Virus record (IMG/VR): IMGVR_UViG_3300042892_003815
Span: 96,001 to 160,000 of that record
Length of the DNA: 64,000 nt
Source of the DNA: a virus
Strand: one strand, 5' to 3'
This document shows positions 10,956-61,980 of this stretch, piece after piece; within the stretch, counting starts at the first letter, position 1, and each line of letters begins with the position of its first letter. Both the position numbers and the translations under genes were made by a program. The notes under the pieces are model-generated. The model ran no database searches and was not told the origin of the DNA. It worked only from the letters and a program-made list of their open reading frames with translations.

Positions 10956-12329
10956 ATGGAAAAATATTCAGATAAATTTTTAAACCAATCAAGTAAGCTT
11001 AAAAATGCAATAGTAGGAATGGAGTTTGAGTTCTATATGAAAGATCTTTCTTTTTATAAAACATTAGAACTACTTAACCAAGAGCTAGACCCAGTAAAGG
11101 TTTGGGGTTTTAGAGAGTATCACTCTGACTTTACACCAGATGATAGAAACTTTAAAATCGAACCCGATTTATCAGGAGGTTCAAACATGGTTGAGTTAGT
11201 AACTGGACCATTAGATTATTTTGATGCTAAGTATTTTCTTGTTAAAATTATTAAGTTTATTCAGACTTATGGATATACTAACGAGAAATGTTCTATTCAC
11301 TTTAACTTATCATTCAATGGAGAAAAAAACTTAAATGACTTAAATATATTAAAACTTATATTAAATACGGATGAAGACGAGATATACAGATGTTATCCAT
11401 CTAGAAAGTCAAATGTTTATGCAAAAAGTATTAAAAACATGATTCCTTTTAAAGAATATGACTTTTTTAATATTCCTATTTCAGTTGTTAAAAATAATTT
11501 AAGATTACCAAATGATAAGTACTTTGGTATAAACTTCTTACATATCAATAATGATAAAGAAACCCAAAGATTAGAGTTAAGATATATTGGTGGTAAAGAC
11601 TATGAAAAGAACCTAGGTCAACTAATTTATTTTATGGATAGATTTATTATAAATGTATTTGATTCTATTGATACCTTATTTAATGCCGAAGATGTTTCTA
11701 AACTAGAAGAGTTTCTAGAAGAAAATATATCTAAATTTAAAAATCTTTCAAAATATGATAATTTTATTGTTGATTTCCCTAGTGTACAAATACAAATAGA
11801 CCAGAATAATAGTTATGATATGGTAAATACTTACTATGATAAAATATATCCAAAATTATTTAGTTTAGTTGAAGCAACACAAGATCTAAAAGAGTGTATC
11901 ATAAACTATGTTATAAACACTCAAATAGTTGAAATAGTTGATGCAAATTTTAAATCAATTTTAACAATTAAAGGATGTGACCTAATAAACTGTAATGTTG
12001 AAGGAATCTTTGAAGATTGTTTTTTCGTTGGATCTGAAATAAAAAACTCACAACTAACAAAATCTAAAATTCAACACTCTGATGTAGACAATTCAAAAGT
12101 ATTCAACTGTAAAGTAGAGCAAAGTGAATTGACTAATTGTTATTTTATGGGTGGTTATCTTAATGGTAATATGCATGCCGGTGTATTCCGTTCAGGTGAA
12201 TTAGGACCTTATGCTAGTTTAGATTCAGATGTTAAAGTTGTTACTGATACTTCCAACTTCTTTGATACTCCATTTGAAGAAGATAGTAAAGGAGATAAAC
12301 AAGGTGATATAAAAGGATTTAAAAAGTAA
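10956..12329 (+). CDS. Putative amidoligase (COOH-NH2 ligase, Amidoligase_2-like) with C-terminal beta-helix-like repeats
   Basis: VGMEFEF, IEPDLSGG..MVELVTGP, CSIHFNLS, KYFGINF, RLELRYIGG motifs; C-terminal 5-residue periodicity (LINCN, IKNSQ, IQHSD, VFNCK, LTNCY). Confidence 0.7.
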   Translation: MEKYSDKFLNQSSKLKNAIVGMEFEFYMKDLSFYKTLELLNQELDPVKVWGFREYHSDFTPDDRNFKIEPDLSGGSNMVELVTGPLDYFDAKYFLVKIIKFIQTYGYTNEKCSIHFNLSFNGEKNLNDLNILKLILNTDEDEIYRCYPSRKSNVYAKSIKNMIPFKEYDFFNIPISVVKNNLRLPNDKYFGINFLHINNDKETQRLELRYIGGKDYEKNLGQLIYFMDRFIINVFDSIDTLFNAEDVSKLEEFLEENISKFKNLSKYDNFIVDFPSVQIQIDQNNSYDMVNTYYDKIYPKLFSLVEATQDLKECIINYVINTQIVEIVDANFKSILTIKGCDLINCNVEGIFEDCFFVGSEIKNSQLTKSKIQHSDVDNSKVFNCKVEQSELTNCYFMGGYLNGNMHAGVFRSGELGPYASLDSDVKVVTDTSNFFDTPFEEDSKGDKQGDIKGFKK

Positions 12330-13087
12330 TGAAACATTTAAGAAGTATAAATGAAGCTTATCAAGTTAGAGAAGTTGAAGATTTTGTGAAAGATCATTTG
12401 GCTTATTTACTAGATGATCAAACTTTTGATATTAAAGTTGAATTATCTGATAATGAATCTCCTAAAAAGTATCGAATAATGTTGTATAAAACTGGTACAG
12501 AAACAACATTAAAATATATGGCAAATGGTTTAAAAAGAGTAGATGTGGATAGATTTGCTTGGTTTGAAGTAAAAGAATATTTTTTACCATTTTTTCACTT
12601 TTTCAAAAAAGAATACTCAATAACATCATTCTCATTTTTCGATAAGGAAAGTAATTATTTAAGTGTAAAGTCTACTGATATAAAAGATAGTTTTAATTAC
12701 AATAGATATATTTATTCGATAAATATGGAAATACATGCAGATACTATATTAGATTATATAAAAGCATTACATGATAAAGAAGAGATAAGAAAAATAGGAG
12801 AAAGTGATAGATTTTCAGTTTGGATGAAAAAATCTAATGTAGGAAGCAGGAGAGTTTATTATATTTTCTTTAAAGTTGTTGTCGCTAATGCAAATAATCC
12901 TTGTAAAGTTTTAAAAATGAATTATGATACACAATCTTCTGCACATTATAATTTTACTATACAATACAATTATTTTAAAACAATTGGATTTAATTCATTA
13001 GATCCACTTTTAGCTAGAAATAATATAGATTTTGGTGATTTTAATCGTGCTTGGTATTATATCGAAGAAGAATATAATAACAGATAA
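12329..13087 (+). CDS. Hypothetical protein with capsid-targeting-like leader; paralog of 39834-40280
   Basis: MKHLRSINE leader; LAYLLDD..F segment. Confidence 0.7.
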   Translation: MKHLRSINEAYQVREVEDFVKDHLAYLLDDQTFDIKVELSDNESPKKYRIMLYKTGTETTLKYMANGLKRVDVDRFAWFEVKEYFLPFFHFFKKEYSITSFSFFDKESNYLSVKSTDIKDSFNYNRYIYSINMEIHADTILDYIKALHDKEEIRKIGESDRFSVWMKKSNVGSRRVYYIFFKVVVANANNPCKVLKMNYDTQSSAHYNFTIQYNYFKTIGFNSLDPLLARNNIDFGDFNRAWYYIEEEYNNR

Positions 13088-13120
13088 TATTTACATTATT
13101 GGAATAAAATATATAGTACT

Positions 13121-14605
13121 ATGAAAAACGTAAAACAATTTAATAAATTTGATTTAATCAAAGAAGAATCTTCACCAAGGCTACCAGTTGATGAAAAATA
13201 CTGGTTGAGAAAAGGTAAAGAAGGTAAAAATGTTGCTCTTTATACTCACGATGATATGGATGGTATTTTCTCTGCAATCGAAGTAAAGAAATACTTACTT
13301 AATAAAGGATTTACTATTGTTAAATATGGTATTCTTAACTATACAGAAGGTTGGAAATATACAACTTTAGATCCTAAACTTATAAATGTTGTTTTAGATT
13401 TTGCTTCTATGCCAGGAGACGAGAGAGATGATCTAATTGATTATTACTTAGATCATCACGGATTATTTAGTGCGGAAGATTTAGAAAAATATAAAAGTTC
13501 ACCAGTACAAAAGAAAAAAACTGCTTCTGCTTATGAGGCAATTTGTCAAGCACTTGGTGTTCCACAAGATTCACTAACATTAGATGTTATTGATATGATC
13601 GATGCGGCTAAATACCAAGATTATGAAATAGATTGGCAAAGACTTTTAGATTTTAATCTATCAGAGATTAAAAAATCTCCTAAAAGAAGATTAGAGTTTG
13701 GTGCTGCATTTAATCAATTTATAAAACGTTCAGATTCAAAAACAATTATATCTGTTATTGAAAACTGTCCTGATGCTTCTATTTACTCTATCTTTAATGT
13801 AATGAAGAAAGTTTATCCAGAACACAATGTTACAATGGGTGGACCTAAAAGAGGTGAAAAGAAAGACTTTATTGAAGATTCTGAATGGAGATTAGGGGAG
13901 ATGCAAAAGAAAACTAGAGGTTCAATGACTTCTAAAAAAACTTATAATACACAAGCTGAGTTTACCAGCCAATTTAAAAATGGTCAATATCTTCAAATAA
14001 ATGGTTATCAAAAAATTGGAGATCTAGTTTTCGTACCAACTGGTACTTGGGCCAATGCTTTAAGAGCTAGAACTATTGTTGAGAAAGACTTTAGAGATGG
14101 TGTTTTAGATAAAGAACCTAACTTTATATTATTACAATATGGATCAACTTTACAAGTTTGTTCATATAAGAAAATGGATGAGATTGAAAATCTTCCTAAA
14201 TTAAGAACTGGTGAAGTTGTAAGTGATTTAGGTAAATATATGACAGACTTATTACAAAACTTCCAAAAACACTTAGGTTATTATAACCCGGATACTTCAT
14301 TAGGACAAGATGAGATTACTGTCTCAGGTGGTCATGGTGGAATTGGATCAATTTCAAACGTTTTTGGAGTTTGTGAGCAAGAACAGTATAAAGGATTAAA
14401 ATATGTTGATATGTTTAAGAATAAAATTATATCAGACTTATCAGGTGTTCCTTTCAATTTAAGTTTAAAATGGAGTGAACCCGCAGAATATTTCAATCCA
14501 AAGTCTCCGGAAATGGATAATAAAGTAATTGCAACTAAAGATGTTACTAAATTAGACAAACAAGGTAATTTAATCAAAAGTTTTGAAAACTTTAAAACAA
14601 GATAA
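13121..14605 (+). CDS. DHH-family phosphoesterase with capsid-targeting-like leader
   Basis: YTHDDMDG, VLDFA and LDHHG motifs; MKNVKQFNKF..IKEE leader. Confidence 0.75.
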   Translation: MKNVKQFNKFDLIKEESSPRLPVDEKYWLRKGKEGKNVALYTHDDMDGIFSAIEVKKYLLNKGFTIVKYGILNYTEGWKYTTLDPKLINVVLDFASMPGDERDDLIDYYLDHHGLFSAEDLEKYKSSPVQKKKTASAYEAICQALGVPQDSLTLDVIDMIDAAKYQDYEIDWQRLLDFNLSEIKKSPKRRLEFGAAFNQFIKRSDSKTIISVIENCPDASIYSIFNVMKKVYPEHNVTMGGPKRGEKKDFIEDSEWRLGEMQKKTRGSMTSKKTYNTQAEFTSQFKNGQYLQINGYQKIGDLVFVPTGTWANALRARTIVEKDFRDGVLDKEPNFILLQYGSTLQVCSYKKMDEIENLPKLRTGEVVSDLGKYMTDLLQNFQKHLGYYNPDTSLGQDEITVSGGHGGIGSISNVFGVCEQEQYKGLKYVDMFKNKIISDLSGVPFNLSLKWSEPAEYFNPKSPEMDNKVIATKDVTKLDKQGNLIKSFENFKTR

Positions 14606-14608
14606 TAT

Positions 14609-61472: not shown

Positions 61473-61488
61473 ATTTTTTTGTTTTTTT

Positions 61489-61719
61489 TTATAAACTAAA
61501 GTAATTACTTAGTATATCGATAGTTTGTTTATCATCTTCATGATACCAAAGTTCTTTACCAACTAAAGAGATTTTCTCATCAGTAATTAAAGTTCTTAAT
61601 GAACCTTCTGTTTGAAACAACTCTAATTCTTCATCTTTTAAATGAATACTAGTTGAACCATCTTGTCCTTCGTTAGGTCTATAAGACTCTTTTAGAAATT
61701 CGTTAAATTTTTTTATCAT
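61489..61719 (-). CDS. Small protein with capsid-targeting-like leader
   Basis: MIKKFNEFLKES. Confidence 0.65.
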   Translation of the reverse strand: MIKKFNEFLKESYRPNEGQDGSTSIHLKDEELELFQTEGSLRTLITDEKISLVGKELWYHEDDKQTIDILSNYFSL

Positions 61720-61734
61720 AATATTTATATTTTT

Positions 61735-61980
61735 TTATTTATTAAACCAAATTACATATCTTGTACCATCTGGTTGTTCTGCACTAAATACTGGATTCTT
61801 TCTACTCATATGTAATCCATCCGAATAATAACCAGTCCCATCATCTTTTGTTATATCACCATCTTCGATAGCTTCTTTAAACTCTTGTACAGTAAAGACT
61901 TCACCATAATGAGGAATTTCATCTGTGAAAATTGGATCATTTAAACCCTCGTTGAACTTCTCAAAACTTTTTATAATCAT
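61735..61980 (-). CDS. Small protein with capsid-targeting-like leader
   Basis: MIIKSFEKFNE. Confidence 0.65.
   Translation of the reverse strand: MIIKSFEKFNEGLNDPIFTDEIPHYGEVFTVQEFKEAIEDGDITKDDGTGYYSDGLHMSRKNPVFSAEQPDGTRYVIWFNK

Follow-up and report, generated by a model that had tools for sequence, protein, structure and literature searches.

Many genes in a 64,000-bp stretch of the genome of a huge uncultured freshwater phage (hereafter the window; bases 96001–160000 of the 190,950-bp linear IMG/VR virus contig IMGVR_UViG_3300042892_003815) encode proteins that begin with much the same short peptide and are otherwise mostly unrelated. Does this N-terminal leader load proteins into the assembling head, as the capsid-targeting sequence (CTS) of phage T4 does, or has it another job, or none? 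An earlier note on this DNA, listing 22 leaders, had argued for the former. We lean, with some reserve, towards the same reading: the leader is likely to be a T4-type CTS that would bring cargo into the head.

The contig has a G+C content of 29.5% and a completeness of 33% as estimated by CheckV; 203 open reading frames (ORFs) were called on it, of which 68 start inside the window. As judged by the major capsid protein (MCP), its closest relatives are the “uncultured phage” genomes LR756502 (MCP 74% identical), LR745206, LR756501/3 and LR756504 (635–735 kb), followed at a greater distance by Lak phages, Tenacibaculum phage PTm1 and Chryseobacterium phages. Positions given below without the word “genome” are those of the window.

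The leader and its carriers

The leader follows the consensus M-[KR]-[YHW]-[LI]-K-x-[FY]-[EN]-x-F-x-x-[E/N], with information content at background level beyond position 13. It comprises 10–13 residues at the extreme N-terminus, including a ten-residue core, [LI]-K-x-[FY]-[EN]-x-F-x-x-[E], mostly preceded by M-K/R-aromatic; it occurs in a long (MKYLKLFEEF...) and a short (MIKKFNEF...) register, and its internal occurrences are at chance level. When scored with a position matrix of leader positions 5–13 and a cut-off of 8 bits, 39 of the 203 genes of the contig, about one in five, qualify as carriers, the portal gene among them being a likely false positive. Within the window this holds for 15 of 68 genes, against approximately 0.1 expected. 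The strict core [ILV][KR].[FYW][ENDQ] is found in the first residues of 28/203 proteins vs. 1.2 expected from protein bodies, and 8 of 4188 internal methionines (0.2%) reach at least 8 bits. Chance cannot explain these frequencies.

All 22 start sites of the earlier note exist as written, and all 15 window carriers are among them; no window gene outside these sites scores 6 bits or more. Two further claimed leaders (51707, 53447) are moderate and the remaining five (12329, 17544, 41107-, 50158-, 51429-) are weak. The carriers of the window are as follows:

13121..14605, plus strand: DHH/DHHA1 (RecJ/NrnA-like) phosphoesterase; leader MKNVKQFNKFDLIKEE, then SSPRLP; 12.3 bits
18947..19426, plus strand: 159 residues; leader MRYLKLYEELTFE; 15.6 bits; no Pfam family; start overlapping the preceding gene, no promoter of its own
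19426..20178, plus strand: 250 residues; leader MKHLKRFNEELSPS; 12.1 bits; LR756502 orthologue 26% identical in the body, yet with the leader MKHLKRFNEELDSS
21625..22608, minus strand: protein with a GH108 lysozyme domain at residues 152–249 (PF05838, E=2.4e-13); leader MNNLHKYNDFLFE; 15.5 bits; single hydrophobic segment at residues 103–121; promoter element TTAATATATA ending 4 nt before the ATG
23264..23725, minus strand: 153 residues; leader MKYLKLYQKFFEDE joined to an MCP-paralogous fragment; 12.9 bits; clusters (blastp) with the MCP (genome 56271–57992) and with a fragment gene at genome 31933–32709
25756..26097, plus strand: 113 residues; leader MKHLKTFESHSTNEE, then the lipoprotein-like stretch VALGAVMALATAC; 13.6 bits
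26193..26873, plus strand: 226 residues; leader MRYLKTFESHSINEEE; 14.8 bits; all Pfam matches below threshold
31083..31658, minus strand: 191 residues; leader MKHIKKFENFSFEEED, the best match to the consensus; 19.9 bits; no Pfam family
31743..32525, plus strand: 260 residues; leader MKIQKFQQYSLQD; two hydrophobic segments; 8.8 bits; LR756502 orthologue starting with MKIQRYNEHSL
37608..37862, plus strand: 84 residues; leader MKIRKFNEEIG; 12.6 bits
39834..40280, minus strand: 148 residues; leader MRYLKLFESFNENE; 17.3 bits; member of a four-gene paralogue family with an LAYL[LM]DD domain (paralogues at genome 87918, 108329 and 165607)
50194..50511, plus strand: 105 residues; leader MKIKRFFESDQ; 10.3 bits; LR756502 orthologue starting with MKKIRKFNESDE
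51511..51705, plus strand: 64 residues; leader MKFIKKYQMFTEE; 17.2 bits
61489..61719, minus strand: 76 residues; short-register leader MIKKFNEFLKES; 17.3 bits; LR756502 orthologue starting with MIKKWNQFINES
61735..61980, minus strand: 81 residues; leader MIIKSFEKFNEG; 12.7 bits

The moderate and weak sites are as follows:

51707..53431, plus strand: moderate carrier, 574 residues; MRKFSDFIKEE in the T4 register (cf. MKTFKEFIKED of T4 gp61.1); 6.2 bits; LR756502 orthologue starting with MKNFSKFLEE
53447..55522, plus strand: moderate carrier, 691 residues; MKLFKYNQFLN; 7.4 bits; Ank_2 match (E=0.0024) below the cut-off
12329..13087, plus strand: degenerate leader MKHLRSINEA with Ile in place of the aromatic; 3.8 bits; paralogue of three canonical carriers
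17544..18950, plus strand: weak site MRYIKLNENIAL, lacking both aromatics; -6.0 bits
40277..41107, minus strand: weak site MKILNWQLFLEE; SAM-dependent methyltransferase (Methyltransf_12, E=5.3e-7); 3.6 bits
49475..50158, minus strand: weak site MKRQNKLILEFTEF; 3.7 bits
50899..51429, minus strand: weak site MKKFSTIRKIYEQEE; DUF5856 protein (PF19174, E=3.6e-17); -5.6 bits, the LR756502 orthologue scoring 8.3

The cargo behind the leaders comprises DHH, GH108, methyltransferase, NFACT-R and DUF5856 domains together with many ORFans; most carriers lack a recognisable domain, and their size reaches about 900 residues. The DHH (RecJ/NrnA-like fold), methyltransferase and lysozyme assignments of the earlier note are borne out, its “Dps-like” label goes back to DUF5856 alone, and “ankyrin” falls short of the threshold. 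The carriers were also said to be unrelated; this is true of most of them, but 7 of 54 belong to paralogue clusters (blastp with the first 16 residues removed). The carriers are thus mostly unrelated to each other, and the leader is portable.

The leader is charged and amphipathic, with K, E and N between the aromatics, and, unlike a Sec, Tat or lipoprotein signal peptide, has no hydrophobic h-region of 8–15 residues behind a short basic N-terminus; a hydrophobicity screen of the 39 carriers found no hydrophobic segment inside it. The lipobox-like stretch VALGAVMALATAC of the carrier at 25756 lies 20 residues downstream, an odd arrangement for capsid cargo and for a lipoprotein alike.

Selection acts on the leader peptide, not on the DNA. 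This follows from the synonymous codon usage at the conserved leader positions, which equals that of the genome (e.g., TTT 82% vs. 78%, GAA 71% vs. 77%, with a mild over-use of AAA, 93% vs. 81%, and TTA, 79% vs. 58%), from the conservative character of the tolerated exchanges (L/I, F/Y, K/R, Y/H/W), and from the placement of the leader at any distance from a promoter: 4–5 nt behind a TTAATATATA element, 20–30 nt behind one, or within operons devoid of it. The LR756502 orthologues of the carriers mostly keep the leader pattern.

The same is seen in the DHH carrier at 13121, where each of the best 120 of 494 homologues (69–98% identical) possesses a leader, with diverse residue combinations, and behind it [LI][KN]EE[AS]SPRLP. 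No leaderless homologue occurs among these 120; as they are all from one phage clade, they do not inform on leader gain. This protein is unusually well conserved, at a level similar to that of the MCP between the contig and LR756502. In its AlphaFold2 model, which matches RecJ, NrnA and GdpP (Foldseek), residues 1–19 have pLDDT <50 and the fold begins at about residue 21; the leader is thus predicted to be a detached, low-confidence N-terminal extension.

Likeness to the T4 signal and the head module

The similarity to the T4 CTS, as proposed in the earlier note, was assessed with the matrix of leader positions 5–13 built from this phage only, allowing a start at T4 Met1. Among 566 T4 ORFs, ranks 1–4 went to IPIII (15.9 bits), IPII (15.9), gp61.1 (14.5) and IPI (14.2), the next ORF scoring 11.2. 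A first matrix, including positions 2–4 in fixed register, ranked the T4 CTS poorly; the match needs T4 Met1 to be set on leader position 4, so that M1-K2-T3-Y4-Q5-E6-F7-I8-A9-E10 of T4 corresponds to leader positions 4–13. In this alignment, the best-conserved leader positions, 7 (F/Y in 97%) and 10 (F in 75%), coincide with T4 Y4 and F7. Because the matrix of this phage singles out the T4 CTS proteins, the likeness is, at the level of sequence, specific and not impressionistic. The N-terminus of T4 gp61.1 (T4 genome 18966–19130, minus strand; 54 residues; MKTFKEFIKED) resembles the CTS as closely as the IPI N-terminus does; to our knowledge, gp61.1 is not listed as a component of the head.

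Suppressor mutagenesis of the T4 CTS has shown that residues 4 and 7 are the main determinants of targeting, whereas those of processing are residues 8 and 10 (PMC9026906). The counterparts of the latter two, at positions 11 and 13 of the leader, are weakly conserved (E13 in 31% of the leaders of this phage and in 64% of those of G015, a complete 130-kb T4-type phage). Overall, the leader and the T4 CTS are alike in being short, in opening otherwise unrelated proteins of a phage with a gp23/gp20/gp21-type head, and in having a core K-x-[FY]-x-x-F-x-x-E with aromatics three residues apart, usually followed by a Glu-containing φ-x-E (φ, hydrophobic). Unlike in T4, the usual leader has three extra N-terminal residues (M-K/R-aromatic) and L/I at the position of T4 Met1.

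Other head proteins of T4-like systems were compared as well. The Alt and gp24 propeptides of T4, MELITELFDE and MAKINELLRE, are cut by gp21 after L/I-x-E; like the leader, they are ten-residue N-termini of head-internal or shell proteins ending in φ-x-E. Alt-type propeptides do not match the leader matrix (Alt ranks 84 and alt.-1 273 of 566) and represent a different sequence class. In phiKZ and SPN3US, tens of head proteins are trimmed after x-x-E by a T4-related prohead protease and are thought to be ejected, their propeptides mostly comprising 80–130 residues and being shared only by paralogues such as gp53/gp54 (PMC5694885, PMC7411985). The situation here is different, with one motif of 10–13 residues on dozens of unrelated proteins. 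A long propeptide of the phiKZ/SPN3US type was considered and set aside: conservation stops at approximately residue 13, and the fold of the DHH carrier starts at about residue 21. Full-text literature searches found no earlier description of such a leader expansion.

The prohead protease gene, which the earlier note proposed to locate, does occur on the contig. It lies some 40 kb upstream of the window, in a head module including the following genes:

genome 49264–51033: portal, T4-type
genome 53963–56182: head-maturation protease fused to scaffold, 739 residues (phrog_207, E=6.8e-28, and a weak PF03420 match)
genome 56271–57992: MCP of the gp23 family

Profile matches in the module also include PF07068 (101.9 bits) and phrog_213. 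Two carriers reside inside it, one of them a stand-alone NFACT-R protein. The latter gene (genome 58066–58458) lies directly downstream of the MCP gene and encodes a basic protein (isoelectric point, pI, 9.1) with the leader MRLKKYKQFNES.

The scaffold part of the protease fusion contains, at residues ~300–440 (genome 54860–55290), approximately ten tandem 14-residue repeats NIAYSEY[LIV]AENLDK. Since each of them holds [LIV]-A-E, the published cleavage consensus of T4 gp21, the protease has probably kept φ-x-E specificity. The protease-scaffold protein has more than 3600 homologues in public metagenomes. Some φ-x-E lies near the leader core in 77–93% of the carriers: with F and Y counted as φ, it occurs in leader positions 6–17 of 28/32, 43/56 and 13/14 carriers of three phages vs. 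24% of random 12-mers. A strict site at the homologous position, however, is confined to a minority.

All four sampled genomes with leaders (this contig, LR756502, LR756501 and G015) contain the repeats, and the leaderless PTm1 and G019 do not; this association of four genomes with both features and two with neither comes from a small sample confounded by relatedness. By eye alone, the repeat YSEY[LIV]AE resembles the T4 CTS, YQEFIAE. The leader matrix of this phage does not recognise the repeats (-3 to -8 bits). Mimicry of the scaffold repeat by the leader may be put forward as a hypothesis.

Distribution and competing explanations

Leader-rich genomes belong to one group of phages. A complete 642-kb relative harbours 56–86 carriers among 959 called ORFs, and in G015 there are 22 of 181, many in the exact T4 register (e.g., MKKFQEFLNEA and MKTFENFKEE, cf. 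T4 MKTYQEFIAEA); such N-termini are intermediate between the T4 form and the longer one of this phage. A shifted variant, M-x-x-L-x-x-Y-K-x-F-x-E, with a low matrix score was noticed in LR756501 (735 kb, region 50–100 kb; MENLNDYKQFNEN, MNNLNEYKLFKG, MNKLKTYKTFEN). Genomes with many leaders have T4-type heads where this is testable; the CheckV-complete 281-kb G023, with leaders and without a full-length gp23 match, may be incomplete or have another capsid type. At the same time, the leader is virtually missing from PTm1, a cultured T4-type phage of Flavobacteriia (224 kb; 1 of 298 ORFs), from the T4-type contig G019 (199 kb, 33% G+C; 1/292) and from a 50-kb sample of Lak-A2 (0/44). A search of IMG/VR with one leader DNA pattern returned >120 stretches, and 161 of the 1093 ORFs of those loci bear the leader, whereas 596 Gb of prokaryote genomes yielded 68 stretches, 55 of them without a leader ORF. 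Four prokaryote loci with several leaders are contigs of metagenome-assembled genomes (three with 24% G+C, one with 40%), probably mis-binned phage contigs of this clade. They include CAZCJR01 (“Cellvibrionaceae”) and JAFGOA01 (“Promethearchaeota”), both at about 24% G+C. Since the AT-rich T4-type controls and the prokaryote genomes lack it, the leader is a property of one phage group, neither a product of AT-rich starts nor a signal used by cells.

If the leader is a T4-type CTS, it would bind, as an amphipathic peptide, to the scaffolding core of the assembling prohead through its two aromatics, the scaffold being fused here to the T4-type prohead protease. The proteins bearing it would be enclosed as the gp23-type shell closes; in many carriers, the protease would then cut after the nearby φ-x-E and free the cargo inside the head, from which it could leave with the DNA. 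Core binding, cleavage, presence in the virion and injection of the carriers are all inferred. The “takeover/anti-defence toolkit” suggested by the earlier note is conjecture, because most carriers have no recognisable domain.

Several observations weigh against the CTS reading. The number of carriers (39/203 on a 191-kb fragment and 56–86 in the complete relative, vs. 3–4 in T4) is far beyond any known CTS system. The internal proteins of T4 are basic (PMC9026906) and small, whereas the carriers are acidic (median pI 4.8 vs. 5.7 for other genes, p=2e-4) and range up to about 900 residues. The T4 processing residues I8 and E10 have weakly conserved counterparts, and a strict aliphatic-x-E at the T4 I8-x-E10 site occurs in ~6/32 carriers (with F/Y/M counted as φ). 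Leaders of orthologues are 55% identical against 45–48% for the bodies, which is not significant (p=0.28, 0.18); as the pattern is nevertheless kept, it is the pattern that is selected, not particular residues. The screen found hydrophobic, membrane-like segments in 2/39 carriers, in addition to the one with the lipoprotein-like stretch. Such segments do not exclude the CTS reading, since some phiKZ/SPN3US cargo has a transmembrane segment, e.g., the SPN3US ejection protein gp47 (PMC5694885, PMC7411985). TATATA-like elements also precede the genes for ribonucleotide reductase (RNR), UvsX and DNA polymerase; hence, late co-expression of the carriers with the head genes is not established, and the TTAATATATA element was dropped as proof of late timing. 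Finally, as no such leader occurs in PTm1, the closest cultured relative among the T4-type phages of Flavobacteriia, descent from the T4 CTS and convergence on it are indistinguishable.

Convergence is at the heart of the strongest competing view, to which we give a minor but real share of credence: the leader could be a tag with another job (recognition by a chaperone or adaptor, an N-terminal degron timing turnover by a Clp- or Lon-type protease, recruitment into another phage-built structure, or a nascent-peptide effect on early elongation), given that two aromatics on a short amphipathic helix could suffice for such a likeness. The very high carrier count, the poorly kept processing residues, the CTS-like N-terminus of gp61.1 and the acidic, mostly ORFan carriers, reminiscent of many early or host-takeover proteins, would all fit it, as would the ClpP encoded by the contig and its large relatives. 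ClpP is absent, however, from the leader-rich complete G015, contrary to a degron tied to phage ClpP, and the virtual absence of the leader from prokaryote genomes argues against a sorting or degradation signal of the kind that cells use themselves. Moreover, it is the CTS proteins that match best in T4, conservation of the leader centres on the residues shown by experiment to determine targeting, and leader-rich genomes have T4-type heads where testable. Less probable still is a shared gene start left behind by gene gain, i.e., a mobile or recombinogenic cassette of promoter and first codons, or duplication with divergence, the peptide itself being of little function. Half of the carriers do stand behind TTAATATATA, often 4–5 nt from the ATG, some are true paralogues, and carriers make up 18/68 of the genes without a homologue in the 642-kb relative vs. 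21/135 of the shared ones. Promoter-early stem-loop (PeSL) cassettes, mobile, regulatory, non-coding gene-start repeats in plastic regions of T4-type genomes, are tied to gene shuffling. Unlike them, the leader is coding and is conserved at the peptide level, and it is just as common within operons that have no promoter element; its third codon positions drift as they do elsewhere in the genome, without loss of the amino-acid classes. The pattern also persists on orthologues with 26–60% identical bodies and, in many residue combinations, on the best 120 of 494 DHH homologues, which amounts to purifying selection on the pattern, not recent copying.

An artefact of composition or of translation starts in an AT-rich genome is close to refuted. 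Lys, Tyr, Leu, Ile, Phe and Asn do have pure A/T codons, making the consensus almost wholly A/T-coded, unstructured AT-rich starts are favoured in hosts without Shine–Dalgarno use, and AAA and TTA are somewhat preferred in the leader. Yet the pattern is position-specific, its conservative exchanges (His, Arg, Trp, Glu) need G or C, and internal methionines as well as the AT-rich T4-type controls and Lak-A2 practically lack it.

If the CTS reading holds and the tag has the same role as in T4, the proteins injected by a large and abundant group of uncultured huge phages would be predictable by a single short motif, from sequence alone; dozens of ORFans in each genome would then be assigned a location and probably a time of action, right at the onset of infection. 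Head cargo would be seen to reach a fifth of all genes, much more than in T4 or phiKZ, and natural variants of a packaging tag would be at hand for phage-based protein delivery. The long-standing question of the binding partner of the CTS would also become testable, the scaffold repeat being a candidate partner. A bolder proposal, offered tentatively since we doubt it more than we credit it, is that AT-rich T4-type phages of an entire clade, with genomes of 130 kb to >700 kb, use the CTS as a general address label on 6–19% of their genes, each virion delivering tens of ready-made proteins. The label may imitate the aromatic-x-E-aromatic-aliphatic-x-E unit repeated about ten times in the scaffold, co-assemble with it and be cut by the same protease. 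The delivered set would include nucleases or phosphoesterases, lysozyme, methyltransferase, the NFACT-R protein and many ORFans.

Promoter context and other features of the contig

Many carriers were said to follow a TTAATATATA-type element, and this is so: it precedes 19/39 carriers vs. 38/151 other genes (p=0.006). The element (e.g., 22609–22625, 23726–23742, 17527–17543 and 41108–41124) shows two spacings, ending either 4–5 or 20–30 nt before the ATG; should the element function in the manner of the late -10 box of T4, the shorter spacing would yield leaderless or near-leaderless mRNAs. It is also found ahead of the portal, peptidase, endolysin and large structural genes.

A second promoter class, TAnnTTTG, is of the Bacteroidota type (e.g., TATCTTTG, TATATTTG); together with signal peptides, these promoters point to a Bacteroidota host. 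They precede 16 genes (0/39 carriers vs. 16/151 other genes). The leader was claimed to be missing from replication, tail and host-promoter genes, and it is indeed absent from those for DNA polymerase, two helicases, RNR and UvsX, from baseplate/tail genes and from all genes of the TAnnTTTG class, including the following ones in the window:

20393–21145, minus strand: gene behind a TAnnTTTG promoter, no leader
26951–27376, minus strand: gene behind a TAnnTTTG promoter, no leader
56350–56802, plus strand: gene behind a TAnnTTTG promoter, no leader
62021–62596, plus strand: gene behind a TAnnTTTG promoter, no leader

The tail region gave no megablast match to cultured phages. In two freshwater metatranscriptome runs from two studies, contigs at least 99% identical to parts of window 17400–27000 are present; these are assembled contigs, devoid of transcript starts or timing and possibly reflecting DNA carry-over, and no claim on expression is built on them. 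The end of the contig (genome 188500–190950), where the ORF caller produced spurious repeat ORFs, is occupied by a long repeat tract, one frame of which reads as proline-, valine- and glutamate-rich repeats (PIPEVPDVPEEP).

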